DNA of 64,000 nt from Candidatus Melainabacteria bacterium 17Bon1m (GCA_032128875.1 JAVLKG010000001.1:448001-512000), one strand, 5' to 3'. Positions 2,265 to 52,087 are shown, numbered from the stretch's first letter. The notes: generated by a model from the sequence alone, not told the origin. Made by a program: numbers and translations.

Positions 2265-3096
2265 GGGCTGAGACAGACTTCTTGTGTTTTTGTTTGGGTT
2301 TGTTGTTGCTGAAGAAAAGCAGCGTTGCCAGACCTGTAAAACATCCAGGAAATGTCAAACTTGGATTTAGTTTCCATGCCAGAGATCCTCCTGCCAGCAG
2401 CGCCGAATATGACGGTGCATGAGCGAACAATCGCTGGATTTTACTAATTTTCGCAATGCTGACGATCTCTATATCCTTCGAATTTTCAAGATCCGAATAG
2501 AGAATCGCAGGTTTGCCGAAAACCTGACTCACATGCAGTTCGATCGCATTCGGCAACTGTTTTAGCGTTTCATATATTAGCTGTGTGCAGTAAAACGAAT
2601 TCGTTTTTGTCAGATCGAATTTGCTGTTGAAGGGCTTTCCGAGTTTGCCGCGCAAGAAGGAAAGAGCAGATTGAATGTCTGCCGAATCTTTGTAGCGAGG
2701 TCTCAATATGGCTATTTTGCTGGCTTTGAGAAACTCATCCACGTCTACTACCGAGACATAAGGTTTTGAGCCGATGTCTATCACTTCATTCGAGCCGGCG
2801 TACACGCCGGAATGAATCCAGTACGATTTGAAGACGCTGGCACTTAGTTGCGCGAGAAGGAATTTGCAGTCGTCCTTCAGCAAAATATCGCCTGCGGCCA
2901 ACTGTGCCTTCAAAGCCTCTCTGCTTTCTTCTGATAGATACGCATTAAGCGTTGGAAAACGAAGATTCATTTTTCTTGCCGCAACCAGGACATAGCCTCG
3001 TCTAAGACGTCTTTCTAAGCGCGATGGCAGTCTGCGTCGGACACTAGCCGGCATTGTTTTTGAGTCGTAACTAGAGTCCCGTTTGTCTTCAGTCAT
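2254..3096 (-). CDS. Permuted papain-like NlpC/P60 (YiiX/YebB-like) hydrolase with hydrophobic C-terminus
   Basis: GDILL...WIHSGVY (His first) ...GKPFNSKFD...FYCTQL (Cys second); overlaps the downstream synthetase by 11 nt. Confidence 0.75.
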   Translation of the reverse strand: MTEDKRDSSYDSKTMPASVRRRLPSRLERRLRRGYVLVAARKMNLRFPTLNAYLSEESREALKAQLAAGDILLKDDCKFLLAQLSASVFKSYWIHSGVYAGSNEVIDIGSKPYVSVVDVDEFLKASKIAILRPRYKDSADIQSALSFLRGKLGKPFNSKFDLTKTNSFYCTQLIYETLKQLPNAIELHVSQVFGKPAILYSDLENSKDIEIVSIAKISKIQRLFAHAPSYSALLAGGSLAWKLNPSLTFPGCFTGLATLLFFSNNKPKQKHKKSVSAHAN

Positions 3097-3113
3097 GGCT
3101 TTCCAAACCCGCC

Positions 3114-3545
3114 CTACTTCAACGTTTGTAAGTACTCAACCAAGCTGTCGATTTCCCACTTCTCTAAATTCTGAGGCGGCATCAAATTTAAGTCGACATC
3201 GAATGATCCTTGCTGTTTGTCGAAGTGTTTGTCCGGGTCTTTAATATGCTCGCGTATGAAATCCTTCGACCGTTTGCTTGCAATGTTGTCCAGCGAATAA
3301 CCATTTTTGCAACCTTTGCCTTCGATGCTGTGGCAATCGAAGCACTGATAAGCTTTATAGAGCAATTTACCTTGTTTGGCAGAGGGCTCAACCGGTTTGG
3401 AATGCCTTGACCGCTTGATTGTCTTAGCTGTTAGCGCCTTTGATTTCTGTGCATCAGCGCCCTCTGTCTGTTTTTGTCCTGCATAAACACCACTGACCGA
3501 CAAAAGAAGTAACGTAAAGGTAGCTGCCGTAAGTCTTTTAGACAA
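3114..3545 (-). CDS. Exported mono-heme cytochrome c
   Basis: Signal peptide, CFDCH, ...FIREHIKDP...LMPP (Met ligand). Start set at TTG 3545, overlapping the usp stop; uncertain. Confidence 0.8.
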   Translation of the reverse strand: MSKRLTAATFTLLLLSVSGVYAGQKQTEGADAQKSKALTAKTIKRSRHSKPVEPSAKQGKLLYKAYQCFDCHSIEGKGCKNGYSLDNIASKRSKDFIREHIKDPDKHFDKQQGSFDVDLNLMPPQNLEKWEIDSLVEYLQTLK

Positions 3546-4452
3546 TGTAATGCACCTTTTTTTCTTTGACTTTCTGCTTTTGTGGAACAACTTCAACCGA
3601 GGACATTGAATGTACCGCAACGGCCTCGGACACGCTTCCTAGTATTAGTTTATCAATGCCCCGCCGACCATGTGAACCAAGGATAACAAGGTCCGCCTCC
3701 CATTCCTTGGCCTTTTCTATCAATTCAGTTTTGGCATCGCCTCTCAGCATCTCCGCGTGGGCTGACTTGTTGCCAAATCTATCATTGAGTTTTACTTCAG
3801 CAGCGTCAAGCCAGCTTGTTCTCTGTGCCACCATCGCATCATAATGCAATTTCATGCTCTTCATTGCTTCGGCGCCCAGGTGAGTGAGCAGCGGACCAGG
3901 TCTCTCCGGTACGACGTTGATGCATTTAAATGTTGTATTTACCGGCCAGTTTGAAGACAAAACATGCTCGACGAGCTTATCGGCGTTGTCTTTGTCGTCC
4001 ATGGCGATAATCACTCTGTTGTCTTCTTTATTTCCAGCCCGTTCCTTCTTTCTTACAACTCGCACTGCACAGCAAGCCTCAAGCAGGATTCTCCTGGATA
4101 CGCTGCCTAATATCAGATAAGTCAAGCCTGAGCGTCCACGGGTGCCTACCATTACTAAATCCGGCTTCCATTCTTGACTCGTACGCAGTATTTCGTCGGC
4201 CGCAAAGCCATCAGGCACAGAACCGGTTACGGTCGCATCAGAATGAGCCTCGCGTAATTTATCGACAGCATGATGGACGAGTCTTTCAGATTCAGCGACA
4301 ACGTGTTCTATAAGATCTACCGGCAAAGGATCGAGGAAGTCCAGGGCAGAAATAACCATAATCTCGCTGCCTTGTGGGAGCGGCATGGAAGCCGCTTCAT
4401 CGATCACTTGGTTGGATGAATCCGAACTGTCGATTCCGATCAAGAGTTTCAT
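3538..4452 (-). CDS. Tandem-domain universal stress protein
   Basis: MKLLIGID; two USP motifs GTRGRSG...LGSVS and GSHGRRG...LGSVS. Confidence 0.9.
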   Translation of the reverse strand: MKLLIGIDSSDSSNQVIDEAASMPLPQGSEIMVISALDFLDPLPVDLIEHVVAESERLVHHAVDKLREAHSDATVTGSVPDGFAADEILRTSQEWKPDLVMVGTRGRSGLTYLILGSVSRRILLEACCAVRVVRKKERAGNKEDNRVIIAMDDKDNADKLVEHVLSSNWPVNTTFKCINVVPERPGPLLTHLGAEAMKSMKLHYDAMVAQRTSWLDAAEVKLNDRFGNKSAHAEMLRGDAKTELIEKAKEWEADLVILGSHGRRGIDKLILGSVSEAVAVHSMSSVEVVPQKQKVKEKKVHYIV

Positions 4453-5783: not shown

Positions 5784-7388
5784 ATGAATGTGACTTCTCC
5801 ATTTTCGGAGCTGAGTGAATCTGAGATCAAACAGCGCCAGCGTTGGCTTGAATTCGAGTCGATTTCTGAAGCGGAAATAGCTGCTATTAACGCGCTTCTC
5901 GAAAAACATGCAGATGAGCTCATGGACAGCATGTACGAACACTTTTTGAGCTTCGAGGAAACGCGCAGTTTCTTCCCTACCGAGCAGATAATGCAGAGAG
6001 CCAAAGGCGCTCAAAAGCAGTATTTCTTGCGACTCGGTCGGGGCGTCTATGACACTGATTATGTGAGAGACAGACTCAGAGTAGGATTGACTCACCACCG
6101 AATTGAGCTCGATCCAAAATGGTACATAGGAGCTTACAACAGAGCTGCATCATGGCTTATGCCGAGACTCTTTGCCGAAAACGATTTAAGCGAATCGGCT
6201 AAAGTCGACCTGGCGAGGTCACTTCTAAAACTCATTTTTTTCGACATGGGGCTGGCCATTGAAAGTTATATCGGGTCGAAAGAATTGGCTCTCCTCGAGC
6301 ATCGAGATGCAATTAGAGAGTTAGAGACGGAAAAGAGAGTCACAAAGAGCATTCTCGAAAGTGCTCCTATCGGCATTGTAAGTTTAGATCTCGATTACAG
6401 ATGTCTTGAGTGCAATGAAGAGTTTGCTCAGCTTGTTTCCTGTGATTCCACTTCTGACGTTATTGGAAAATTGCTCTTTGATCTGGCCCCAAAGCTTCCT
6501 CAGGAGCCTTTCAAACACGTAATCGAAACAGGTCAACCAAGCCAGTTCTCGGCCAATGCTCTTAATTTTGCAAAGAACAATCCCACTGAGGTTACTTACT
6601 GGGATTGGGCGGCCTGGCCGGTAAAAAACAAAGGTGTATACGGCATTGTTGCCATGTTCTCGAATGCAACCGATAGAGTTCAGTTGCAACAACAAAGAGA
6701 AGATTTTGTTGCCACTCTTACTCATGACCTAAAAACCCCTGTTTCTGCAACCAATCGTGCGGTCAAGCTCATTCTTGCCGGGGATTTTGGCGAAGTTTCT
6801 GCCGAACTAAGGGAAATTCTCGAGACAGTTTTGCAAAGCAACACAACTCTGTATGCGCTCGTTCAAACTTTGCTTGATGTCTATCGCTTTGACAGCGGTG
6901 TCAAGGTTATGGATATGAAAGAGTGTAACCTGGCCGGGATAGTTACACAGCTTGTCACCGAAATCATGCCTTTGGCTCAAGAAAGGCGCATTCAGCTCAA
7001 GGCTGTTTTGCCATTTGATCTTGAGTGCATAAATTGCGACCAAGAAGAAGTCCGCCGTGTTGTGCAGAACTTGATTGACAATTCGCTTAAATTCACTCCG
7101 GCTGGCGGTACCGTCACCGTCACAATGTCTCAGAACGATGAACTCACCACCGTCTCGGTAAAAGACACTGGAAAAGGCATCCCGCCTGAGAACATGTCCA
7201 AGCTATTCCAAAGATTCTGGCAAGCCGGATCAAGCGGTCGATACTACGCTAGTACCGGACTCGGTCTTTACCTGGCAAGAAAAATTGTCGAAGGTCATGG
7301 CGGCAAAATTTCATGCGAGAGTAAGGTGGGAGAAGGCAGCACATTCTCGTTCGAGCTGCCTAATTCAGGCCAAACTCCAAAGAGCTAG
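5784..7388 (+). CDS. Globin-coupled sensor histidine kinase (globin-PAS-HisKA-HATPase), cytoplasmic
   Basis: HemAT/protoglobin-like N-terminus (MYEHF with B10 Tyr, VGLTHHRIELDPKWYIGAY with proximal His), PAS-like ILESAPIGIV, H-box THDLKTP, NLIDNSLKF, DTGKG, STGLGL; no transmembrane segment. GTG at 5772 is an alternative start. Confidence 0.9.
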   Translation: MNVTSPFSELSESEIKQRQRWLEFESISEAEIAAINALLEKHADELMDSMYEHFLSFEETRSFFPTEQIMQRAKGAQKQYFLRLGRGVYDTDYVRDRLRVGLTHHRIELDPKWYIGAYNRAASWLMPRLFAENDLSESAKVDLARSLLKLIFFDMGLAIESYIGSKELALLEHRDAIRELETEKRVTKSILESAPIGIVSLDLDYRCLECNEEFAQLVSCDSTSDVIGKLLFDLAPKLPQEPFKHVIETGQPSQFSANALNFAKNNPTEVTYWDWAAWPVKNKGVYGIVAMFSNATDRVQLQQQREDFVATLTHDLKTPVSATNRAVKLILAGDFGEVSAELREILETVLQSNTTLYALVQTLLDVYRFDSGVKVMDMKECNLAGIVTQLVTEIMPLAQERRIQLKAVLPFDLECINCDQEEVRRVVQNLIDNSLKFTPAGGTVTVTMSQNDELTTVSVKDTGKGIPPENMSKLFQRFWQAGSSGRYYASTGLGLYLARKIVEGHGGKISCESKVGEGSTFSFELPNSGQTPKS

Positions 7389-26522: not shown

Positions 26523-26819
26523 GATATTAGATTCGTAGCCGGATGTTCTTGCACTCGAGGTGACTGTTCATTTTGCTCGGATGGGTACACCCAAGATTAT
26601 TCGGTTTAATCATCCCAAAGAACGATACGCCTGCCTCTGAAAGCGCCGGAGATTAGCGTTTTTCAGTGCTTGTCAGTTGTTCCCGGAATTCGCTGTAAAT
26701 TAGTTTCACCCCTGCAAAACCTGCAACTGACCTCAATTATGGTAAACCTTTCACCATGCAGCGGTTTTGTGCAATCGCTCTGCGTGAAAGTCTTCGTCAT
26801 TACATGCTGGGGTAAAGTT

Positions 26820-29800
26820 ATGCGCTCTTTCGTTTTCGATAAGTGGTTGTCTCGTGGTAGCAAGCGGCGCAGGTCGAAAACAGATATTTCTATTGCACTC
26901 GGGCTGACTGTTGTTTCCCTAAGCATCGCCAGTTCGCAAGCTATGACCGGTAGTATTCCAACTGAATTTTGGAAGAAAACTGCTGCTCAATCGCTCGGTA
27001 GCTCGAATCGTTTTCTTACATTCATGAGCACAGATAAGCCACTCTACAAGAGTGGTGAGAGAGTCTTCGTTCGTGGCGTTATGCTTGACTCTTCAAGTCA
27101 CCAACCCAAAACAGGTTACGGCGGCAACGCATATATTCAAGTGCGGGGGCCGCGCGGGCAAGCCATTGCGAGCGGACAGGCTCAAATTCACGACAGCATT
27201 TGGTCTTATGCTTGGAACATCAGCCGCGATCAAGCCGGCGGTGAATATACGATTGTTGTCAGCTACCCATTTGGAGGGCACGCACCAGCGGAGCGCAAAG
27301 TGGACGTACGCTCATATCGCGCTCCACGGCTGAAGACGCAGCTGATTTTTGCACGCGATGGATACGGACCGGGTGATGTTGTCACTGCATCGCTATACGC
27401 GAAACGCGCCGAAGGCGGCATTCCTGCGAATGCAAAAGTGACGATTAAACCACTCGTAGACGGAGTTCCAATTGAGGCAGGCACAAGCAAAATTGACTCG
27501 AATGGCTTTTGTCGCATTTCATTTAGTCTGCCGCAACACATTGAGCGTGGTGACGGAACGCTTGCGCTTGTGATTGAAGACCAAGGTGTTGTTGAAACAA
27601 CATCCAAGACGATTCCAATTCTGTTGCAGAGCGTCGATTTGCAAATGTTTCCAGAGGGTGGTGACATTGTCGCTGGGTTTAAGAATCGTGTGTATGTGCA
27701 GGCGTTTTTGCCTAATGGCAAACCTGCCGATCTTCAGGCGCGTGTTATAGAAGAGCCGATTTCAGGCAAGAGGGTGGTCGCCAGTGTTTCGCATAAGCCC
27801 AATAAAAAGGGCGCAAAGAAAACGACTGTCGTCCACAATATCGTCAATTCTACGAATGCGCTTGCGTTCTTCCGCACAGAGCATGAAGGAATGGGCCGTT
27901 TTGAATTCACTCCTCAGGCAAACAAAAAATACTTTTTGCAAATTTCAAAACCGTCGGGAATTAAGAAGCTATACCCGCTACCCGCAGTGAAGTCAATCGG
28001 CGCGGTACTCCATTCAGAAAGTGATGTGGTCAAAAAGTTACAGCCGCTTCGCATCAAGGTTGGCAATAAATCTGCATGCCGAATTACCGTATCGAAGCAA
28101 GACAGAGAAATCGCATCGCGAATCATTAGTGCAACAGCCAGAGCAAACGGCACAAGTGGTGAGTTGGTGCCTATCGAGTTTCCTTTACCGCATGATGTTG
28201 ATGGTGTCTTGACTGTGACGGTATGGAATGAGTTCGACAAGCCTCTAGCTGAACGGTTGATTTTCCGTGAGCCCGAGAAGACTCTCAACATCACAGTGCG
28301 CGCAGATAAAAACACCTATGCGCCTGGCGAGAAAGCGCAAATTACTGTGCGCACTACAGATGAGAATGGCAGACCAATATCGGCGATGGTTGGAATGACC
28401 GTCACTGATGACAGTGTTCTGCAAATGATTGAAAAGAGAGACCAGCCACCACGTCTTCCTGTAATGGTTCTTCTCGAGCCTGAAGTGAAAGATCTGGCAG
28501 ATGCGCAGTTTTACCTCAATCCTGCTATTCCGAAATCCAGCCTAGCTACGGACCTTTTGTTAGGGACACAAGGATGGCGACGCTTCGCGTATCTAACTAC
28601 TGATGCGTTTATTCAGCAGTACGGAGATAAAGCTAGACGTGTTTTAGTAATGTCAGAGCAAAGAAACCAGGCACCGCAGCAGTTTCCCATCTCCAGTCCA
28701 CGTCGTAATCGCGCATCCTTTGGTTCTCCTCTTCGCACCAGTATCGGTGCCGGTACCGGCGCAGCCTTAGGAACTGCAATTGGTGCTATCTCTGGAGGGC
28801 GTACGAATGGCAGAGGAGCGTGGTCTGGTACCGCCATCGGTGCTGGAACTGGAGTGCCGTCTCAGCTGAAGCGGAAGTTCGATGCTGACAGTCAGCCGGG
28901 CGCACGTTTTAAATTTGCGCCCAACCAGTATGTGAATGAACCGCTCAGCCTTCCCGAAGAGGTGGGACGAGTTGAGGGTCCACGCGACGTAAATATGTTC
29001 CAGGTCGAACCCACAATTATTGATGAGCGACACTATTCTACTGGGCGTGCAGAGCGTCATCAGAAGACGAGTCCGACACTGCCTGAAGGTGCACCAATTC
29101 CGGACGAAGGGCAGACCGGGCAGCTTGCGCAATTGAGTAGTATGGATAGGTATTCTTTCTACACCCCACCGCGCAGTACGGACACAATCAATTCGATGTT
29201 TGCGGTGCGTGTCTTCTCACACCAAGCTCGACCGAACAGAAGCAGTACTGATCGCAAGGACTTCAGCGAGACTCTCTTTTGGTCCCCCGGAACCAAGACC
29301 GATGCGCGAACTGGCGAAGCAACAATCAGTTTTGATCTTAGCGATAGCATTTCCACGTTTGAAGTTGCGGCCGATGGATTTTCCAGTGGTGGCTTAATTG
29401 GTGCGAAGAAGCTTGAGATCAAATCTCTGAGACCTTTCTATGCGGAAGCGAAAATTCCGCTTGAGGTCACATCTGGCGACCAAATCATGTTGCCGCTCAA
29501 TTTGGTAAACGGTACTAATAGTGTTCTCACCGCAGTAGGTTTGAAAGTCGATCTACCTCAAGCGTTTAAATTGCTTGCTCCTCTCAAACTGCCGCAGCAG
29601 TTGAGTGGTGGCGAGAGAGCAAGAGTGTTACAGCCCATTCAAGTCGGGGCAGCAGACAAGGTATCGCATCTCAGAATTGAAGCAAAGGCCGGCAACAACG
29701 TCGACATTGTCGAAAGAGAAATCGAAGTTAGACCGGTAGGCTTCCCTGTAGAGAAGGCGTTTGCTGGAGTTTTAGAACCCGGCAAATCCGCCAAGATTAG

Positions 29801-31331
29801 TGTGAATATCGAGGAAAGTATGGTACCGGCAAGCTTGGGCACAAAGGCGGAAATTTATCCAACGCCGCTTGCAAATCTCACAAGCGCGCTAGAGCGTTTG
29901 ATTCAGGACCCTTATGGCTGTTTTGAGCAGACTTCATCAACAAGCTATCCGCTGACGATGGCTCAGCAATACTTCAAGTCTCATCCGGATGTTGATCCTA
30001 AGTTGATTTCGACCTCTCGCGAGAAACTTGAGGACGGTTATAAGAAGTTGGTTTCGTTCTGGTGCCCGGATCGTGGATACGAGTGGTTTGGACACAACCC
30101 AGGGCATGAGCCCCTTACAGCTTACGGATTAATGCATTTTGCTGACATGAGAAAGGTCGCCAAAATCGACGAGGTGATGTTTACAACCACACGTGCTTGG
30201 CTGATGAAGCAGAAAGATGGCAAGGGCGGCTTTACACGCAAGGCTCAAAGTATTCATACCTGGACTGCCGACAAGGACTGCTCTAACGCGTATATCGTCT
30301 GGTCTCTACTGGAAACAGGGGAGCAGGCTTCTAATCTTAAATCTGAGTTGGATTCATTAAGAAGCGCAGCGACTGCCAGTCAAGACAGCTATGTTGTTGC
30401 ACTAGCAGCTAACGCGTTCGATTTGGCAGGAGATAAGCAATTTTCGAAGTCATTGATGAAGCGGCTTGCATCTCTGCAGAAGAGTGATGGCAGTGTCGAC
30501 AAGGTGAAGAATTCAGTTGTCGGTAGTTCTGGTGAAGCTCTCGAATTGGAGGGTGTTGCTCTGGCAACTCTTGCGTGGTTACGCAACGACGAGTTTTCGG
30601 CCAATGTTCAAAAGAGCATGAAATTCCTTGCCGAGTCTTGCAAAGCTGGAAGATATGGTTCTACCCAATCTACAGTTTTATCTCTGCGAGCAATTCTTGC
30701 TTACGACAAGAAGAATGCTCACCCAAAGGCACCCGGAAAGATTCACGTCTTTGCCGATGGAAAGCCGGTTGCAGATGTAGCTTTTGATGAGAAAGCAAAG
30801 GAATCCATCAAGCTGCCAGATTTGACCGAAATACTCTCTCCTGGCGAGCATGAAATTGAGTTGAAAATGGAAGGCGGTTCTGCGATGCCATATGCAGTGG
30901 CAGCAAATTACAATCGTTTGACGCCTGAAAGCAGTAAAGACTGTAAGCTTGATCTCAGTGTCAATCTCTCGCAGCACCAACTGATTGAAGGTTCTTCGGC
31001 GGAAGTCATTGCAACGGTCACCAACAAGGTTGATGCTGTCGTTCCAAATCCTGTAGCAATTATCGGTTTGCCAGGAGGATTTGAGCCGCGACATACGCAA
31101 CTCAAAGAACTTGTTAAAGGACGCAAAATTGATGCCTACGAAGTGCGTGGGCGCGAGGTCGTGCTCTACTGGCGCGGACTAGATAAGAACGAAAAGATCT
31201 CGGTACCTATCAGTGTAATTGCTTCTGTTCCGGGTAAGTTCACTGGACCAGCAAGTCGTTCATATCTGTATTACACAGATGAGCATAAGAAGTGGACGGA
31301 TGGATTGACGGTCGAGATTGCAGCGAGGTAA
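26820..31331 (+). CDS. Alpha-2-macroglobulin family thioester protein
   Basis: Signal peptide, STDKPLYKSGE (MG domain), FPEGG, DLLLGTQGWRRF, RKDFSETLFW, thioester motif PYGCFEQ (CFEQ at 29919-29930), YGSTQST, PASRSYLYY. Confidence 0.92.
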   Translation: MRSFVFDKWLSRGSKRRRSKTDISIALGLTVVSLSIASSQAMTGSIPTEFWKKTAAQSLGSSNRFLTFMSTDKPLYKSGERVFVRGVMLDSSSHQPKTGYGGNAYIQVRGPRGQAIASGQAQIHDSIWSYAWNISRDQAGGEYTIVVSYPFGGHAPAERKVDVRSYRAPRLKTQLIFARDGYGPGDVVTASLYAKRAEGGIPANAKVTIKPLVDGVPIEAGTSKIDSNGFCRISFSLPQHIERGDGTLALVIEDQGVVETTSKTIPILLQSVDLQMFPEGGDIVAGFKNRVYVQAFLPNGKPADLQARVIEEPISGKRVVASVSHKPNKKGAKKTTVVHNIVNSTNALAFFRTEHEGMGRFEFTPQANKKYFLQISKPSGIKKLYPLPAVKSIGAVLHSESDVVKKLQPLRIKVGNKSACRITVSKQDREIASRIISATARANGTSGELVPIEFPLPHDVDGVLTVTVWNEFDKPLAERLIFREPEKTLNITVRADKNTYAPGEKAQITVRTTDENGRPISAMVGMTVTDDSVLQMIEKRDQPPRLPVMVLLEPEVKDLADAQFYLNPAIPKSSLATDLLLGTQGWRRFAYLTTDAFIQQYGDKARRVLVMSEQRNQAPQQFPISSPRRNRASFGSPLRTSIGAGTGAALGTAIGAISGGRTNGRGAWSGTAIGAGTGVPSQLKRKFDADSQPGARFKFAPNQYVNEPLSLPEEVGRVEGPRDVNMFQVEPTIIDERHYSTGRAERHQKTSPTLPEGAPIPDEGQTGQLAQLSSMDRYSFYTPPRSTDTINSMFAVRVFSHQARPNRSSTDRKDFSETLFWSPGTKTDARTGEATISFDLSDSISTFEVAADGFSSGGLIGAKKLEIKSLRPFYAEAKIPLEVTSGDQIMLPLNLVNGTNSVLTAVGLKVDLPQAFKLLAPLKLPQQLSGGERARVLQPIQVGAADKVSHLRIEAKAGNNVDIVEREIEVRPVGFPVEKAFAGVLEPGKSAKISVNIEESMVPASLGTKAEIYPTPLANLTSALERLIQDPYGCFEQTSSTSYPLTMAQQYFKSHPDVDPKLISTSREKLEDGYKKLVSFWCPDRGYEWFGHNPGHEPLTAYGLMHFADMRKVAKIDEVMFTTTRAWLMKQKDGKGGFTRKAQSIHTWTADKDCSNAYIVWSLLETGEQASNLKSELDSLRSAATASQDSYVVALAANAFDLAGDKQFSKSLMKRLASLQKSDGSVDKVKNSVVGSSGEALELEGVALATLAWLRNDEFSANVQKSMKFLAESCKAGRYGSTQSTVLSLRAILAYDKKNAHPKAPGKIHVFADGKPVADVAFDEKAKESIKLPDLTEILSPGEHEIELKMEGGSAMPYAVAANYNRLTPESSKDCKLDLSVNLSQHQLIEGSSAEVIATVTNKVDAVVPNPVAIIGLPGGFEPRHTQLKELVKGRKIDAYEVRGREVVLYWRGLDKNEKISVPISVIASVPGKFTGPASRSYLYYTDEHKKWTDGLTVEIAAR

Positions 31332-42096: not shown

Positions 42097-42158
42097 ATAA
42101 ATCTCCCAGCGAAGTTTAAAGTCTACACGTAAGGACTGCACCTGTGTACAATTTCTAT

Positions 42159-42992
42159 ATGCGTTTTTGGAATATCACCTTACTAGCCTGTGTTCTGTTT
42201 TCCAGCTTTGTCCCATTGGCTGAAGGGGCAAACGCGGACAAACGTGAAATCGCAGCGCAAAGTGGTGCGCCTCTACAAGCGAATGTTACGCACAATAGTG
42301 CTGTCGCTGCTGCAGATGCGATCGCTCCTTTGATGAGATTTCGAGTCCGTTTGACGTCGGTAATTGATGGAGCATTGGCGAAAGTCGGTGATCCTGTGCA
42401 TGGCGAATTACTTGATACAGTGATGCTCCCCAACAACCACTACATTGGTGCAGGGGCTCATGTGCTCGGAGAAGTAACTGCGATTGATCTTTTAAAGACT
42501 TCGCTCAGAGCCGATTTAACTCCCAAGCATTGGCGCAACTGCAACGGAACAATCGGCATCAAAGTGAAGAGTATCGGGGGGCACGATTTAGCAGGGAATA
42601 TTATTCCAGCTCCCAAAACTCGCATAGTTCGAACCGACAAGAAGGCTGCGCCGCTCGGCGTCGACGGCAAGGGCGAGATTACAGTCGTCTACAGCAGTGC
42701 CGGTTACACCGCCGCTAATGTGGCGATATCGGGCGGTTGTCTCGCTGCTGGTCCCGCCGGAATAATCGTCGGACCAATTGTTGGTGGCGTTGCTGGGGCT
42801 GCAGATCCAACTTTTGCGTATGGTCGCCCAGTCACCGGTGATGATCATCATGCTCATGTGAAAGGGTTTTTTAAAGGCGTAATTGGCGGCTTGCCAGGCG
42901 GTTTTCTCATTTCCGGCCTCACCAATCGCGGTATCAATATTTCGCTCACCCCTGGCGACGTTATTGTGTTTCAAGAACACAAAACTGAGTAA
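42159..42992 (+). CDS. Exported hypothetical protein with glycine-rich hydrophobic C-terminus
   Basis: Signal peptide; AKVGDPV.G...GAHVLGEV; GGVAGA-type segments. Confidence 0.7.
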   Translation: MRFWNITLLACVLFSSFVPLAEGANADKREIAAQSGAPLQANVTHNSAVAAADAIAPLMRFRVRLTSVIDGALAKVGDPVHGELLDTVMLPNNHYIGAGAHVLGEVTAIDLLKTSLRADLTPKHWRNCNGTIGIKVKSIGGHDLAGNIIPAPKTRIVRTDKKAAPLGVDGKGEITVVYSSAGYTAANVAISGGCLAAGPAGIIVGPIVGGVAGAADPTFAYGRPVTGDDHHAHVKGFFKGVIGGLPGGFLISGLTNRGINISLTPGDVIVFQEHKTE

Positions 42993-43066
42993 GTGGAATT
43001 CCTGAATAGCGCAGAATGGTAAATTCTGCCAATTACTGAATTTCTGGAATTACCGAATTCTGCTAC

Positions 43067-43489
43067 TTACTGAATTGGACCGGTCTTCCGTTTCCGTTTG
43101 ACGTCGACGATCAACGTAATAAAGGACGCTATTGTGAGTCCTGATCCAAATGCGAAGAAGAGCACGGGAAGGAAGTAGAGGTTTAGCCAACTGTTGATTG
43201 TCCAGTTCTTTGGATCGCCCTTGTCGTAGAGAATTGGGACAGTGTCGCCGGTTTTGAATTCCGGTGGCGACGAACCAACTTTGCCTCTTCCCTCTATTGC
43301 TTCTCCGTTGTCCGGCCGAAATCGGACAATGGGATAGGACGCGCCCTTGCCACTGGCTTCTAGCCTGAGTACAGTACCAGATGTGGTGCCACCTTCTTTC
43401 AACAATCTCTGAGATTGGAAATAGAACGTTACGGCGACGGCATAGAAGACTATTGATAGCGAGCTGAGAAGCAAAATTACCTTGAACAT
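43067..43489 (-). CDS. DUF3592-like membrane protein
   Basis: TM, TSGTV...YPIVRF...GDTVPILYDKGDP, TM. Confidence 0.8.
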   Translation of the reverse strand: MFKVILLLSSLSIVFYAVAVTFYFQSQRLLKEGGTTSGTVLRLEASGKGASYPIVRFRPDNGEAIEGRGKVGSSPPEFKTGDTVPILYDKGDPKNWTINSWLNLYFLPVLFFAFGSGLTIASFITLIVDVKRKRKTGPIQ

Positions 43490-43686
43490 GATTCACACCA
43501 CTTTGTCGGAATCATCAGGTTTCCCTCATCGGTTCGATCAAGAAACGCCTTGATCAATTTGTGCTGCTGATTTCATAGCTGTTTTCACATATGTAGGTAC
43601 ATTGTTGGAATCGCCAGCTGCGGTCAAGTCGACCGGTCGTCAAAAATGTAATTTCTGTAATCTCCTGTTACAGTCCCCACATTCTA

Positions 43687-43715
43687 TTGACAGCTCGGAC
43701 CCTAGACTGTAACGT
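43687..43715 (+). promoter_or_regulatory. Sigma70-type promoter of the arg leader
   Basis: TTGACA (43687-43692), 17 nt, TAACGT (43710-43715). Confidence 0.75.
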
Positions 43716-43750
43716 GGACAAAGGTTTTGTTTTTTCCAGGGCAACCAGAA

Positions 43751-43831
43751 ATGACCTTTGCGAATTACACCAGCAACAACCGACGTACGCGCCGCGTTCT
43801 ATTGAACTCGGGGCCGGCTGGGCTGCGTTGA
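43751..43831 (+). CDS. Putative arginine attenuator leader peptide MTFANYTSNNRRTRRVLLNSGPAGLR
   Basis: 26-codon ORF; CGA CGT ACG CGC CGC at 43781-43795; lies between the promoter and the terminator. Confidence 0.8.
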   Translation: MTFANYTSNNRRTRRVLLNSGPAGLR

Positions 43832-43858
43832 TCTAGGTCACCAGAAACCACACCTTTA

Positions 43859-43895
43859 GCTCCCGAGTTCTTCTAGGACTCGGGAGTTTTCTTTT
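43859..43895 (+). terminator. Attenuator terminator upstream of argF
   Basis: GCTCCCGAGTTCT-TCT-AGGACTCGGGAGT followed by TTTCTTTT; the 5' arm is complementary to GAACTCGGGG (43804-43813). Confidence 0.85.
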
Positions 43896-44001
43896 GTCCG
43901 TAGCCGGGTGACATCGGCAATACAAGCCAGAGTGAGCAGTTCAAGGCGAACAAGCAGCTCATCAACTGAGTAAAAAGCTCAGATATAGAGAGGGAAAGAC
44001 C

Positions 44002-45042
44002 ATGGTATTCACAATGTACAAAAAGCCGCCGACCACGCCTGTGGGCTTCAAGTCCCAGCGCATGTCTCCGCCGCAGCATGGTCGTTCGCCGCTCAACAAG
44101 GTTCTTGTAGAAGACACGCTGAGAGGCAAAGACTTCCTGGGCATCGGCTATTTCACCGCCGCTGAATTGAAGCTGTTTTTGGAAACGGCCGAACTGCTTA
44201 AAGCAAACAAGTTTGACGACACCCAAACCCTCTTCGCCAAAGGGCAGACTCTTGCGCTTTGCTTCGAAAAACCATCGCTAAGGACGAAAGTCACTTTCGA
44301 AGCCGGCATGATCCAGCTTGGCGGCAGTTCAATCTTCCTCGAAGACAAGCTTGGTGTCAGGGAATCCGTGCCGGATATCGCCAGAAACCTGGACAGGTGG
44401 TTGGACGGAATTATGGCGCGGGTGTTTGAACACAACACGCTTATCGTGCTTGCCGATTACGCTCAAGTCCCTGTAATCAACGGGCTTAGCGACCTCGAGC
44501 ACCCCTGCCAGGCACTGGCGGATTTTCTGACTATTAAGGAACAAAAAGCTATTAAAGATTGGAACTTCAAAGGAATCAACCTTGCATACGTAGGAGACGG
44601 CAATAATGTGGCTAATTCACTCATGCTTCTCGCCGCCAAGCTTGGCTGCAATTTCTCAATCGCGTGCCCGTCCGGCTATAAGCCCGACGCCACCCTTTGG
44701 GAAATGGCGATGGAAGAGGCGAAGCACACCGGTGCGCAATTAAAAATGACAGAGTCCCCCGCCGAAGCTGTTGCTAACGCGGATGCGGTCTACACCGACA
44801 CTTGGGTGTCGATGGGGCAAGAAGAGGAGATGGCGGAGAGAATCAAAATCTTCGAAAGCTATCAAGTCAACGAAGCTCTGTTGAAGTTTGCAAAACCGGA
44901 TGCCATCGTCATGCACTGTTTGCCCGCGCACCGGGGGCAGGAAATCACAGATGCCGTGATGGATGGACCACAATCAGTAGTTTTTGAACAAGCGGAGAAT
45001 AGACTCCACGTTCAAAAAGCAGTCATCTCACTAATCATGTAA
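44002..45042 (+). CDS. argF: Ornithine carbamoyltransferase
   Basis: FEKPSLRT, HPCQALAD, VGDGNN, DTWVSMG, HCLPAHRG, QAENRLH. Confidence 0.95.
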   Translation: MVFTMYKKPPTTPVGFKSQRMSPPQHGRSPLNKVLVEDTLRGKDFLGIGYFTAAELKLFLETAELLKANKFDDTQTLFAKGQTLALCFEKPSLRTKVTFEAGMIQLGGSSIFLEDKLGVRESVPDIARNLDRWLDGIMARVFEHNTLIVLADYAQVPVINGLSDLEHPCQALADFLTIKEQKAIKDWNFKGINLAYVGDGNNVANSLMLLAAKLGCNFSIACPSGYKPDATLWEMAMEEAKHTGAQLKMTESPAEAVANADAVYTDTWVSMGQEEEMAERIKIFESYQVNEALLKFAKPDAIVMHCLPAHRGQEITDAVMDGPQSVVFEQAENRLHVQKAVISLIM

Positions 45043-45121
45043 TGCGGCAAAAACGCTGCGGTTGAAGGCTTTCTGCATCACCGACAGCGCAACGCAGCAT
45101 TCAAATCAAGGAGCAAATCAA

Positions 45122-46342
45122 ATGAAGAAAATTCTCTTGGCATACAGCGGCGGACTCGACACTTCCTGCATTCTCACCTGGCTGAAGGAGCAGTACAAGG
45201 TGCCTATCGTGGCTTATTGTGCCGATGTCGGACAGAAAGAAGATTTCGAAGCGGTCAAAGTCAAAGCGATCAAAACCGGCGCTGAGAAGTGCATTATTGA
45301 AGATTTGAACGAGACTTTCGTCAAGGATTACATCTTCAAAGCAATTAAAGCCAATGCGCTGTACGAGTCCTTCTACCTGATGGGAACCTCCATCGCTCGT
45401 CCGTGCATTGCGCAAGGCATGATTACTGCAGCTCTGAAAGAAGGCTGCGACACCATTGCTCACGGCGCTACCGGCAAGGGCAACGATCAGGTGCGTTTCG
45501 AACTGGCTGCTAAATCTCTGGCGCCTCATTTGAATGTGATCGCCCCATGGAGAATGTGGAAATTCGACGGCAGGAACGACCTCTTCGATTACGCGGAGAA
45601 GCACGGCATTCCTTTGCCGGTGACCAAAGAGAAGCCATACTCCATGGACGCCAACCTCATGCATATTAGCTATGAAGGCGGCATTCTGGAAGATCCGTGG
45701 GCGGAAGCTCCGGAGAACATCTATCTGTGGACTAAGAACCCGGAAGATGCTCCCAATAAGCCTGAATTCGTCACTATCGACTTTGATGCCGGCGTTCCTG
45801 TTGCAATCAATGGAGAGAAACTCGGCCCAGTAGAGCTACTCAACAAGGCAAATGCAATCGCAGCCGAACATGGCGTGGGAAGGCTCGATATGGTCGAAAA
45901 TCGCTACATCGGCATTAAGTCGAGAGGCGTTTACGAAACACCTGGCGTGACCATCTTGATGCAAGCGCACAAGGCAATCGAATCTCTTGTGCTCGACAAA
46001 GAAGTTATGCACCTCAAAGATTCGTTCACTCAGAAGCTATCGACCCAAATCTACAACGGTTACTGGTTTGCACCAGAAACCCAAATCCTCTGGAAGATGG
46101 TCGAAGAAACCCAACAACCCGTTACCGGTACCGCCAAGATTAAGCTCTACAAGGGCAATTCGATTGTAGTGGCACGGAAGTCTCCGGCGTCGTTGTACGA
46201 CCTCAAGGTTTCCAGCTTCGAGAATATGTCTGAGTTCCAATCGGCGGACGCAGGCGGATTTATCAATATCGCAGGACTGAGACTAAAAACCTGGAGCAAG
46301 AAAAATGCAAGTTTTGAGAAAAGCCTTCAAGCAACCCCTTAG
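45122..46342 (+). CDS. argG: Argininosuccinate synthase
   Basis: LAYSGGLDTS, HGATGKGNDQVRFE, SRGVYETPG. Confidence 0.98.
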   Translation: MKKILLAYSGGLDTSCILTWLKEQYKVPIVAYCADVGQKEDFEAVKVKAIKTGAEKCIIEDLNETFVKDYIFKAIKANALYESFYLMGTSIARPCIAQGMITAALKEGCDTIAHGATGKGNDQVRFELAAKSLAPHLNVIAPWRMWKFDGRNDLFDYAEKHGIPLPVTKEKPYSMDANLMHISYEGGILEDPWAEAPENIYLWTKNPEDAPNKPEFVTIDFDAGVPVAINGEKLGPVELLNKANAIAAEHGVGRLDMVENRYIGIKSRGVYETPGVTILMQAHKAIESLVLDKEVMHLKDSFTQKLSTQIYNGYWFAPETQILWKMVEETQQPVTGTAKIKLYKGNSIVVARKSPASLYDLKVSSFENMSEFQSADAGGFINIAGLRLKTWSKKNASFEKSLQATP

Positions 46343-47651
46343 TGACGTAGTCACTGAATTCGTTGCCTGCACGCACGCCGATGCGCATCTCGTCAAAGCA
46401 GATTTGACGGGCAGCAAAGCGCATGCTCAAATGCTCGCCGAAGAGGGGCTCATCAGCCCCTCTCAGGGTGAGGCAATTCAAGGCGGTTTGGACACTCTGT
46501 TGGCGAAAGCCGAAGAAGGGAAGTTCGAACTAAAAGTTGAGTATGAAGACGTTCACATGAATGTTGAGAAACAGCTTGAAGAGCTGATCGGTTCAGATGC
46601 TTTGAGGTTGCATACGGCGAGAAGCAGAAACGACCAGGTCGCGCTTGATTTGCGACTCTACACTGTCGGTGCGATTGATTCGCTTGTCGATGGTTTGAAG
46701 TTCCTTCAGGCTGCGATTTTGAAATCAGCGAAGAAGCATGCGGATGTCGTTATGCCGGGCTATACTCATTTGCAGCGTGCGCAGCCAGTTTTATACGCCC
46801 ATGCAGTTCTTGCTTTTCACGAAATGTTTTCGAGAGATATCGAACGTTTCACCGATTGCAAAAAACGCACTGCCGTTTCGCCACTCGGTGCCGGTGCGCA
46901 AGCTGGTTCTGGATTATCAATCAATCCACAATCGGTAGCAGCCAAATTGGGCTTTGAAAAGGTTTTCACAAACTCAATCGACGCTGTGAGCGACAGAGAT
47001 TTTGCAGCTGAGTTTTTGATGGCGTGTAGTTTGACTGCCGTGCACATTTCTCAGATGGCAGAAACATTGGTCATCTGGAGCAGCTCTGAGTTTGGATTTG
47101 TTGAACTGGCAGACAATGTGACGACCACTTCCAGCTTGATGCCTCACAAGAAAAACCCCGATCCACTGGAAATCGCTCGTGCAAAATCTGGTGCTGTAGT
47201 CGGCGACCTGGTTAACTTGCTCATCACGCTGAAGGCGTTGCCGCTTGGCTACAACAGAGACTTGCAAGAGACAAAGCCTCCTGTAATCAACTCTGCCGGC
47301 ATTGTCGGCGAAGCGCTGAAAGTGATGGCGTGCTGTGTAGACGCAGTTACGGTCAACGTTGAGAAAACGTTAGCCGCCGCTTCCGACCCCGCGTTGATGA
47401 CCACCGATCTTGTTGAGTATCTTGTGAACAAAGGCGTCCCCTTCCGTAAGGCGCACGAAACAATCGCTGAGATTGTGGCTGACGCATCGGAGAAAGGCAT
47501 GGCACTTCCTAAGATGGAATTGAGCGAGTATCAGAAGTATGCGGCGGAGTTCCACAACGACCTCTACGCACTCTTCGATCCAAAGCTCTCCGTCTCAGCC
47601 AAAAAATCCCACGGCTCGACCGGAAATGAGCAAGTAAAAAAGAATTTGTGA
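46305..47651 (+). CDS. argH: Argininosuccinate lyase
   Basis: EDVHMNVE, LHTARSRNDQ, MPGYTHLQRAQP, SSLMPHKKNPD; overlaps argG by 38 nt. Confidence 0.97.
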   Translation: MQVLRKAFKQPLSDVVTEFVACTHADAHLVKADLTGSKAHAQMLAEEGLISPSQGEAIQGGLDTLLAKAEEGKFELKVEYEDVHMNVEKQLEELIGSDALRLHTARSRNDQVALDLRLYTVGAIDSLVDGLKFLQAAILKSAKKHADVVMPGYTHLQRAQPVLYAHAVLAFHEMFSRDIERFTDCKKRTAVSPLGAGAQAGSGLSINPQSVAAKLGFEKVFTNSIDAVSDRDFAAEFLMACSLTAVHISQMAETLVIWSSSEFGFVELADNVTTTSSLMPHKKNPDPLEIARAKSGAVVGDLVNLLITLKALPLGYNRDLQETKPPVINSAGIVGEALKVMACCVDAVTVNVEKTLAAASDPALMTTDLVEYLVNKGVPFRKAHETIAEIVADASEKGMALPKMELSEYQKYAAEFHNDLYALFDPKLSVSAKKSHGSTGNEQVKKNL

Positions 47652-47791
47652 TGGCTCATCGTTCCAAGGGATGGTCAAATTACTTTTCTTGGAGCGATTC
47701 CGATAGAGAAGTTATCGTAAGACTGATGTCGGCAACTAACAGTAATGATAAAAAAGGAACATTGCTCTTGCTTTAGTCTTTAGGAAAACGC

Positions 47792-48553
47792 GTGCAGTTT
47801 ATCGATAGTATTCCCATATGGTTTGTCTTCTGCGCCTTTGTCGTGAATGCGTTTTGTTGGATTGAGTGCGGATTTCGTTTTGGGCAGTATCGTAAGAGCA
47901 AGGCGGCGCATGAGCCAGAATCCGCAGTTGCCGCAATGATTGCATCTACGCTCGCTTTGCTGGCGTTTGTACTTGGCTTTACATTCAACATTGCAACCAG
48001 TCGGTTTGAAGAGCGAAGAATATTGGTTGTGTCGGAGGCTAACGCGGTCGGTACTGCATATCTCCGAGCTGACTGTTTAGATGAACCAAGCAGCTCTCGC
48101 ATAAAGGCTCTCTTACGTAAATATGTCGAGATCCGTATTGACCTAGACTCGCGTTCGGTACCCAACATCATTTCAACTTCTGAACAGCTGCAGCGCGAAC
48201 TGTGGAAGGAAGCTACCATCATCGCGAAAAGACATTCAGACTCTCCTGTTTGTGCCCTTTTCATAAGTGCCCTCAATGAAGTGATTGATATTCACTCAAG
48301 ACGCGTTACTGCGGGTCTTTATGCTCGCGTGCCGATAGTAGTTTGGTTGTGTTTATTTTTGGTTTCAAGCTTAGCGATGACTGGGCTAGGATTTTTGTGC
48401 GGAATTTTAGGGCATCGTAGTTATTTCGCAACAAGTACTCTGGTTGCAGCATTCGGCGCTGTGATGATTTTGGTGGCAGATTTAGATCGCCCCCTGCAAG
48501 GTGTAATTCGCACGCCGCAACAAGCTTTGACCGAATTGTACAAAAAGCTCTAA
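47792..48553 (+). CDS. DUF4239/bestrophin-like membrane protein
   Basis: LLAFVLGFTF...RFEERR...EANAVGTAYLR...LNEVID...DLDRP. Confidence 0.75.
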   Translation: MQFIDSIPIWFVFCAFVVNAFCWIECGFRFGQYRKSKAAHEPESAVAAMIASTLALLAFVLGFTFNIATSRFEERRILVVSEANAVGTAYLRADCLDEPSSSRIKALLRKYVEIRIDLDSRSVPNIISTSEQLQRELWKEATIIAKRHSDSPVCALFISALNEVIDIHSRRVTAGLYARVPIVVWLCLFLVSSLAMTGLGFLCGILGHRSYFATSTLVAAFGAVMILVADLDRPLQGVIRTPQQALTELYKKL

Positions 48554-51361: not shown

Positions 51362-52087
51362 TCAATTTTGATTTGGTGGAAAGCGCTGTCCTTGTTCTAA
51401 CTGGAACTGCTTGAACTTGTTCTGCAGATTTCCGCGTTCGTCGTAATTAATCACTGTAAACGGCTTGATACGCTTTTCTACGCAAACGCTTTGCGATACA
51501 CGCAATGGTTTCCCTGTCACATCAAAGTCTTTTATGATCATTTCAACCTTGATGACTCCATCGCTTAGTGGGCTGTAGTTTACGTCGGTAATCTCAAAGA
51601 AAGTGTCATAAGGCTGCTGTTTGCTCTTCAGGCATCGCACGACCTTTGCTGCTGTCCGAAGGGTCAATCGATCGGTGTGTGATCTAAGTACAGAGACTTG
51701 CACAATTGTTTGGCTTTCAGAATAATCTGCAGTCTCAATACTTCTTACGTAAGGAGTTGCAGTGTAATGCCAAATTCGACCAAGTCCGTCTTGTTGTGTG
51801 CCGATCGTTCGCACAAGAGATATCTGGACATTTGTAGGTTCTGTAATCTGGCGCTGTCCTGTGGCACAATCAGTCGAATCGTAAAACGTCTGGAACTTGG
51901 CTTGCCACGTTCCTGCGAGCCATGGGGGCACCTGAATCCACTGGAAAGACTGCAAATCCGGGGCTGCTGTTGAACCTATCATTGCTTCTGCGCTGCTCAT
52001 GCTCAGTATTAGAGCTAAACAGAGACCGAATAATCTAGCGAAGCGTCTTGCCGTCTTCAAAGCCTGTCCTCCTGCAATTGCACCCAC
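51362..52087 (-). CDS. Exported hypothetical protein
   Basis: Signal peptide ending AEA; WIQVPPWLAGTW. Confidence 0.65.
   Translation of the reverse strand: MGAIAGGQALKTARRFARLFGLCLALILSMSSAEAMIGSTAAPDLQSFQWIQVPPWLAGTWQAKFQTFYDSTDCATGQRQITEPTNVQISLVRTIGTQQDGLGRIWHYTATPYVRSIETADYSESQTIVQVSVLRSHTDRLTLRTAAKVVRCLKSKQQPYDTFFEITDVNYSPLSDGVIKVEMIIKDFDVTGKPLRVSQSVCVEKRIKPFTVINYDERGNLQNKFKQFQLEQGQRFPPNQN

Follow-up and report, generated by a model that had tools for sequence, protein, structure and literature searches.

A probable arginine-codon leader-peptide attenuator upstream of the argFGH genes of a Candidatus Melainabacteria bacterium

The amino acids served by textbook leader-peptide attenuation are Trp, His, Phe, Leu, Thr and Ile/Val. 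The classical trp, his, leu, thr, ilv and pheA attenuators of enterobacteria feature a short leader ORF in which codons for the end product abound, a segment 1 overlapping these regulatory codons, hairpins denominated 1:2, 2:3 and 3:4, and a terminator placed before the first biosynthetic gene; the element described below is alike in all these traits. Kinetic choice between the alternative hairpins is common to all classical attenuators. The masking of segment 2 by a ribosome sitting at the leader stop codon is a feature of the trp model, and is not found in all attenuators. Rfam families known as Trp_leader, His_leader, Leu_leader, Thr_leader and Phe_leader correspond to these elements. Arginine is the standard case of control by the ArgR repressor, or by T-boxes in some Firmicutes. 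ArgR is a DNA-binding protein, responsive to arginine, which acts on the same genes at transcription initiation; T-boxes bind tRNA directly, and translation is not needed. The arginine attenuator peptide of fungi (arg-2/CPA1 upstream ORF) stalls the ribosome as a nascent peptide at high arginine, and blocks translation. It resembles the leader described here, as an upstream ORF ties arginine supply to a gene of the arginine pathway, but it is eukaryotic, and lacks both a run of Arg codons and a terminator. Poly-Cys leaders have reportedly been predicted in mycobacteria.

The closest published case is the Salmonella speF orf34, where, according to the available parts of the report, ribosomes that pause on two adjacent Arg codons change how the mRNA folds and how RNase G degrades it (PMC6386406). 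As in the mechanism proposed below, Arg codons of an upstream ORF report arginine supply and redirect the folding of the mRNA. In contrast, only two of the 34 codons of orf34 are for Arg, it controls ornithine decarboxylase and not arginine synthesis, and the same parts of the report describe its outputs as Rho termination, exposure of the ribosome-binding site and decay by RNase G, with no intrinsic terminator switch (PMC6386406). T-boxes for tyrosine and arginine, as well as attenuators for histidine, threonine and phenylalanine, have been described in a survey whose available sections report no RNA element upstream of actinobacterial arg operons (Seliverstov et al. 2005, PMC1262725). The Firmicutes Arg T-boxes, as presented in those sections, are similar to the present element in that they sense tRNA-Arg charging and choose between terminator and antiterminator before arginine genes (PMC1262725). 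Leaders predicted in Streptomyces lividans for Ala, Met and Thr likewise extend leader-peptide control beyond the six textbook amino acids; in the portions of the paper available none is for arginine, and several lack a canonical terminator (PMC8079986). No Arg leader is mentioned in the accessible sections of Naville and Gautheret 2010 (PMC2965389), and no arginine attenuator is found in those of five further papers (PMC8632094, PMC10117765, PMC12508126, PMC6524683, PMC13236596).

The window analysed here is a stretch of 64,000 nucleotides of the Candidatus Melainabacteria bacterium 17Bon1m genome, with a G+C content of 46-50%. Three genes of arginine biosynthesis, each scoring above the curated NCBIfam cut-off, follow one another in it:

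44002..45042, + strand: argF, ornithine carbamoyltransferase, 346 aa (NCBIfam NF001986, 400 bits, cut-off 306; TIGR00658, 386 bits)
45062..46342, + strand: argG, argininosuccinate synthase, start codon uncertain (NCBIfam NF001770, 583 bits)
46305..47651, + strand: argH, argininosuccinate lyase, start codon uncertain (NCBIfam TIGR00838, 520 bits)

The argH ORF listed overlaps argG by 38 nt. The region preceding argF hosts the following features; the six leaders referred to are that of the window and those of five related loci presented below:

43687..43692, + strand: -35-like box TTGACA (direct reading; TTGACA or TTGACG at an equivalent distance in all six leaders)
43710..43715, + strand: -10-like box TAACGT (direct reading; 17-nt spacer to the -35 box)
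43751..43831, + strand: leader ORF MTFANYTSNNRRTRRVLLNSGPAGLR, 26 codons plus TGA (direct reading; ATG-started Arg frame in all six leaders)
43781..43795, + strand: codon run CGA CGT ACG CGC CGC, Arg Arg Thr Arg Arg (direct reading)
43789..43799, + strand: segment 1, 5' arm of the 1:2 anti-antiterminator (MFE fold, pair list, duplex energy -14.2 kcal/mol)
43804..43814, + strand: segment 2, GAACTCGGGGC, pairing with segment 1 or segment 3 (duplex energies, pair list, alignment)
43858..43871, + strand: segment 3, 5' arm of the terminator, with 43861-43870 as the partner of segment 2 (terminator scan, duplex energies, pair list, alignment)
43875..43888, + strand: segment 4, 3' arm of the terminator (duplex energy, terminator pairing in the alignment)
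43887..43895, + strand: T-tract TTTTCTTTT of the intrinsic terminator (direct reading, terminator scan)

The leader starts at the ATG in 43751 and stops at the TGA in 43829-43831. A leader ORF with four Arg residues in five codons had been proposed by a sequence-only reading of the same DNA, and proves correct base for base. Arg accounts for 4.7% of codons in the 21 long ORFs of the window, and the chance of finding at least four Arg in five codons is about 2e-5 per position, by arithmetic from this background. The 1:2 hairpin (43789-43814) includes 9 Watson-Crick pairs, two internal mismatches and a 4-nt loop, and segment 1 overlaps the last two Arg codons. The 2:3 antiterminator results from the pairing of 43804-43813 to 43861-43870 by 9 Watson-Crick pairs plus one G-U. 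The terminator stem (43858-43888) has 14 pairs and a fold energy of -22.3 kcal/mol, and is the best terminator-like site within 42900-48000; 106 nt separate the end of the T-tract from the argF start. All three structures had been postulated in the sequence-only reading, including the overlap of the first with the last Arg codons and the position of the terminator and U-tract before argF, and are recovered here from the MFE fold, the pair list and the terminator scan. The fold of the 181-nt leader beats 199 of 200 dinucleotide shuffles (z = -3.2).

As described for attenuators, the locus features a short 5' ORF, a cluster of cognate codons, an intrinsic terminator before the first structural gene, a 2:3 antiterminator that excludes the terminator and carries compensatory changes, and a segment 1 that lies on the regulatory codons and pairs with segment 2. 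It differs from the classical elements in that the codons are for Arg, the host is a member of the Melainabacteria group and not of the proteobacteria, and no Rfam family resembles it in sequence or by covariance model. At the gathering score nothing in the whole window, the leader element included, matches an Rfam family, those of rRNA and tRNA among them, and no match to Rfam 15, T-box included, was found in 43000-44600 at E values up to 10. Relative to Arg T-boxes, the leader is much shorter, and Stem I with its specifier loop and the T-box sequence are not matched in Rfam. There is no shared sequence ancestry with enterobacterial leaders.

Relatives of the element were searched in a genome collection scanned with alignment A1 (ArgF and 15 relatives). 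At least 600 stretches were retrieved, 594 of which are confirmed ArgF relatives, and the best 80 of these 594 loci were examined. The nearest ArgF proteins are metagenomic, and share 94%, 81% and then about 70% identity with that of the window; the sequences P0002 to P0012 are close relatives (67-81% identity). Named organisms encoding close ArgF proteins include Candidatus Obscuribacterales, an order within Candidatus Melainabacteria, and Capsulimonadaceae. The leader layout recurs in five of the best 80 loci, L001, L002, L005, L006 and L008. The ArgF of L001 is 96% identical, and marks a near relative of the window. L002, L005, L006 and L008, as well as L007, which is dealt with below, show 59-67% ArgF identity, and are labelled Obscuribacterales, Obscuribacteraceae or "Cyanobacteria bacterium". 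Similarity of ArgF, ArgG and ArgH is what places the window in this group. Leader-bearing organisms are known as metagenome-assembled genomes only. The nearly identical window and L001, and likewise L005 and L006, count once each, and about four independent lineages are therefore represented.

In L001, L002, L005 and L006 the leader stands before argF-argG-argH, and the tblastn match of argG between the window and L001 spans 409 aa. The leader ORFs are 26, 29, 30 and 24 codons long, respectively (28 codons in L006 if a second in-frame ATG, located four codons upstream, is used), the Arg runs are RRTRR, RRRR, RRRR and RRRR, and all four have the sequence GAAC[TC]CGGGG and a terminator with a T-tract. 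The eleven-base motif GAACYCGGGGC, found in 4 of 80 loci, is too narrow, and misses L008, where segment 2 begins with GGAC; this copy was found by reading the region upstream of argJ. The L008 leader ORF (3359-3433) has an Arg run RRSRR, and is followed by segment 2 GGACTCGGGG, a terminator and a T-tract. The genes argJ, argB, a tRNA gene, argF, argG and argH come next. As the L008 leader precedes argJ, the element tracks the arginine pathway, and not one particular gene. Segment 2 fits the motif G[GA]AC[TC]CGGGG in all six leaders, and the spacer between terminator and argF measures 78-205 nt in the relatives.

The tRNA gene of L008, located at 5802-5876 between argB and argF, encodes a tRNA-Arg with anticodon ACG. 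A GC-rich hairpin with a weak T-tail is found just 5' of it. The Arg codons of the L008 leader are CGC and CGT only, which by the wobble rule, as generally known, are codons of the ACG tRNA-Arg isoacceptor.

A strict scan, which required a short ORF containing an Arg run and, after it, a terminator with a perfect stem, was carried out on 78 of the 80 argF upstream regions, two being too short, and was positive only for L001, L005 and L006. A bulge in its terminator kept L002 out, and L008 escaped because its leader is more than 2.5 kb away from argF, outside the scanned stretch. The covariance model R1, built on the six copies, gives 82-104 bits to its training sequences, as expected by construction; in a search of 931,286 bases nothing beyond these six scored above 16.4 bits, the next-best match being, at this value, the terminator read on the other strand. 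A chance coincidence of ORF, Arg run and hairpins finds an argument in the small size of the sample, and in nothing else. Since about four lineages share the layout and show compensatory changes in it, and the other 74 scanned argF upstream regions all failed the strict test, the probability left to this explanation is practically negligible.

The six leaders have been aligned (alignment A4) for covariation analysis. The alignment is usable for the 2:3 and 3:4 helices, and the MAFFT register is inconsistent for 1:2. Of the 58 cells of the 2:3 helix 96.6% are paired, a share that falls to 22.9-69.5% once the 3' partner is shifted by one to three columns. Two of the 10 pairs changed on both sides, A-U being replaced by G-C in L008, and U-A by C-G in L005 and L006. 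The 3:4 terminator has 63 cells, 90.5% of them paired (12.7-61.9% with a shifted partner), and both sides changed in 3 of its 11 pairs. Column 96, in segment 3, changes together with column 34 in segment 2 and column 112 in segment 4, a three-way change which is expected if segment 3 has to pair with both. The segments 2 of L005, L006 and L008 pair best with their own segment 3; L002 is an exception, since its own segment 3 has one mismatch to segment 2. The observed covariation score was equalled by 12 of 500 shuffles for 2:3 and by 1 of 500 for 3:4, counts that are weak statistics because about four lineages are involved and the structures derive from the same sequences. Covariation may be taken as supportive, but not conclusive, of a 2:3/3:4 switch.

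Duplex energies in the six leaders range from -10.1 to -14.2 kcal/mol for 1:2, from -14.6 to -24.2 for 2:3 and from -16.3 to -23.2 for 3:4, and terminator fold energies from -16.8 to -22.3 kcal/mol. The comparison of argF upstream regions bears out the classical attenuator layout claimed in the sequence-only reading. The layout is present upstream of argFGH and conserved in about four lineages, an Arg-rich leader occurs in five loci, the run is in frame in all six leaders, and the alternative stems 2:3 and 3:4 covary.

ORF and terminator might also make up a separate small gene, coding for a protein or an RNA, with the promoter of argFGH hidden in the 106-nt spacer. The strength of the terminator and the 78-205 nt left before argF in the relatives would suit such an arrangement. 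No promoter-like site was found by the promoter scan in the 106-nt spacer, however, and the spacer is the least conserved part between the window and L001, apart from the ribosome-binding region. Moreover, a plain terminator has no role for a conserved 2:3 pairing, and the linkage to arginine genes holds even where argJ comes first. A separate gene is accordingly regarded as very unlikely. From the seventh leader codon to the end of the T-tract the window and L001 are almost invariant.

The Arg run is RRTRR, RRSRR or RRRR in the six leaders, and is preceded by 9, 10, 10, 11, 12 or 15 codons of differing sequence. The Arg frame is an ATG-started ORF in all six. The other two frames, which would read Ala or Pro, are so in one of six, and the lone ATG involved sits in the promoter region. 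The first two Arg codons are located 5' of the 1:2 stem; Arg is kept, and the third base is A, T or C. The conservation of the CGC CGC codons is not purely a coding signal, because they sit in segment 1. Within and next to the runs there are 22 Arg codons, every one of them CGA, CGT or CGC, whereas the commonest Arg codon in the genes of the window is AGA (31%, 21 long ORFs). According to wobble rules, CGU, CGC and CGA are read by one tRNA-Arg, whose anticodon ACG is modified to ICG; what the leader would sense is thus the charging state of this one isoacceptor. The Shine-Dalgarno-like sequence upstream of the leader ATG is weak in all copies. We infer that the leader is translated, that ribosomes stall on its Arg codons, and that a response to arginine follows.

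The same hairpins could be switched by an RNA-binding protein or a small ligand, the CGN repeats being kept as segment 1 and not as codons. The location of the last two Arg codons inside segment 1 and the weakness of the Shine-Dalgarno-like sequence both leave room for this explanation, as does the terminator present in the full-length MFE of five out of five leaders. It accounts poorly for the first two Arg codons, which lie outside the 1:2 stem and still encode Arg with varying third bases, and for the in-frame ATG and stop found in all six leaders, against one in six for other frames. There is in addition no conserved aptamer-like core, because the interval from segment 2 to segment 3 is constant neither in length nor in sequence, and no Rfam match, T-box included, at E values up to 10. 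Such a switch is unlikely.

Still other is the possibility that the leader senses a general slowdown of translation, or the stalling of a poly-basic nascent chain, and not arginine specifically. It is generally known that Arg runs can slow ribosomes by themselves. A self-stalling peptide, however, would keep the operon permanently on, and the linkage to arginine biosynthesis operons holds in six of six cases, which makes a sensor of this kind extremely unlikely.

The element is very probably a ribosome-mediated, leader-peptide transcription attenuator which senses charged tRNA-Arg and controls argF-argG-argH, as judged from sequence comparison and modelled folds. Transcription would start about 28 nt upstream of the leader ATG, and a ribosome would translate the 26-codon leader while RNA polymerase moves ahead. 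When Arg-tRNA is scarce, the ribosome is expected to stall with one of the four CGN codons (43781-43795) in the A site, covering segment 1. Segment 2 would then be free to pair with segment 3 once this is made, and with 2:3 formed no terminator would arise, and the polymerase would read into argFGH. With ample Arg-tRNA the ribosome would pass segments 1 and 2 and reach the stop codon; segment 2 being covered, or recaptured by segment 1, 3:4 would form, and transcription would end at the T-tract. The order of folding is presumed to be kinetic.

Folds were computed on transcripts truncated just before segment 4, the moment of the decision, with a 28-nt ribosome footprint masked. Six of six leaders, L008 included, adopt 2:3 when the footprint is centred on any Arg codon in the run. 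Without a ribosome, 1:2 forms and segment 3 is free in four of five, L005 preferring a long-range alternative. The predicted freeing of segment 2 by stalling, put forward in the sequence-only reading together with the resulting 2:3 switch, is reproduced in these models. In complete transcripts the MFE contains the terminator in five of five leaders, even with a stalled ribosome, and the switch must therefore be kinetic.

Unlike in classical attenuators, the leader stop lies 12-15 nt past segment 2 in five of the six leaders (15 nt in the window, L001 and L002, 12 nt in L005 and L006) and 3 nt past it in L008, and is never before or inside segment 2. In the window a 28-nt footprint placed at the stop leaves segment 2 free. 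The truncated MFE with the footprint at the stop retains 2:3 in the window, L001 and L002, but not in L005 and L006. Masking of segment 2 by a ribosome at the stop codon fails therefore in the window, and takes place only in L008. As the stop is 15 nt past segment 2, termination at ample Arg would have to rely on the covering of segment 2 by the passing ribosome, and then on the re-forming of 1:2, by which the adjacent segment 1 would recapture segment 2. In L008, with segment 2 masked by a ribosome at the stop, the fold contains the terminator, and the MFE without a ribosome is the antiterminator, not the terminator. In these models L008 is closer to the trp scheme than the other leaders.

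The same genes are differently organized in L007, an Obscuribacterales genome with 60% ArgF identity. No leader was found there by the motif and R1 scans, and the operon reads argR-argG-argH-argF-argC-argJ-argB. The argR gene (2726-3193) is the first, and its product matches PF01316 and PF02863. An AT-rich ARG-box-like sequence is seen by eye just 5' of it, at 2680-2715. The L007 ArgR, used as a tblastn query, found matches in 24 of 81 sources, the majority from Acidobacteria. The six leader-bearing sequences, for which 8-64 kb per genome were searched, gave no match. With an ARG-box consensus taken from general knowledge and up to two mismatches allowed, the only sites in the window are distant ones, at 3786 and 17401, and none is near the leader promoter. 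ArgR/ARG-box control concerns the same arg genes and the same arginine signal, but here an RNA leader is found, and no argR in the 64-kb window. Replacement of leader and ArgR by one another as regulator would fit these data, which come from one contrasting genome and 8-64 kb per genome.

The sequence-only reading knew of no characterised classical Arg attenuator on arg genes. No Arg-codon leader attenuator on arginine biosynthesis genes was found in the full-text literature searched, from which most subscription journals are absent. Most likely the mechanism is of a textbook kind, and its amino acid specificity and host phylum are without a prior description in the literature searched. A wider reading is cautiously favoured. 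The element would be the first classical Arg-specific leader-peptide attenuator on arginine biosynthesis genes, confined to Obscuribacterales, non-photosynthetic relatives of cyanobacteria, where it would have replaced ArgR, which rules almost everywhere else (a sister genome has argR and no leader). It would read CGA, CGU and CGC only, and so one tRNA-Arg isoacceptor, the gene of which sits, in one genome, in the regulated arg cluster. If true, a conserved Arg-codon attenuator would fill the arginine gap in the textbook list of attenuation, and the regulation of one pathway would prove swappable inside a single order, between a protein repressor and a sensor made of the translating ribosome. 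Ribosome-coupled attenuation would extend to the Melainabacteria group, which implies close coupling of transcription and translation there. At about 170 nt, the leader is also a compact candidate for an arginine-responsive part.

As to the promoter, the TTGACA and TAACGT boxes spaced by 17 nt, indicated in the sequence-only reading, are present, and their position is conserved in the leaders, but the pair was not flagged by a consensus promoter scan and has no other support. The pair goes unflagged because the -10 box TAACGT is a weak match to TATAAT (3 of 6 positions). The distance from the -35-like box to the leader ATG is about 60-66 nt in all six leaders. A -10-like TAnnnT is found at the 17-nt spacing in L001, L002, L005 and L006, and L008 has TATGGT with an 18-nt spacer. 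At 43655-43673, just 5' of the -35 box, CTGTAA is followed after 7 nt by TTACAG, the two making up a 6-bp inverted repeat, and a third CTGTAA (43707-43712) overlaps the -10 box. All three copies are kept in L001, and further upstream the sequences are unrelated. The repeat could be an operator for some transcription factor acting on the leader promoter. Several direct copies of a unit of about 25 nt (…GCATTGCCGCCCCTAC…) are seen by eye in L001 at 125-300, abutting the conserved promoter region, and are absent from the window.

Some observations concern the proteins encoded in the region. The ArgF of the window carries an N-terminal extension of about 40 aa (residues 1-41, 44002-44125), with a motif Q19 R20 M21 P23 S29 P30 L31 common to the closest relatives in alignment A1. 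Many relatives are 460-600 aa long and carry a Clp_N domain (PF02861) as a fusion N-terminal to ArgF, and in L003, L004 and L009 the sequence upstream of ArgF resembles the Clp amino-terminal region. Several ORFs near the arg operon (42144-42992, 43050-43496 and 51362-52087) match nothing in Pfam or NCBIfam. On the + strand of the window, 26670-31331 is taken up by a very long ORF (1553 aa).
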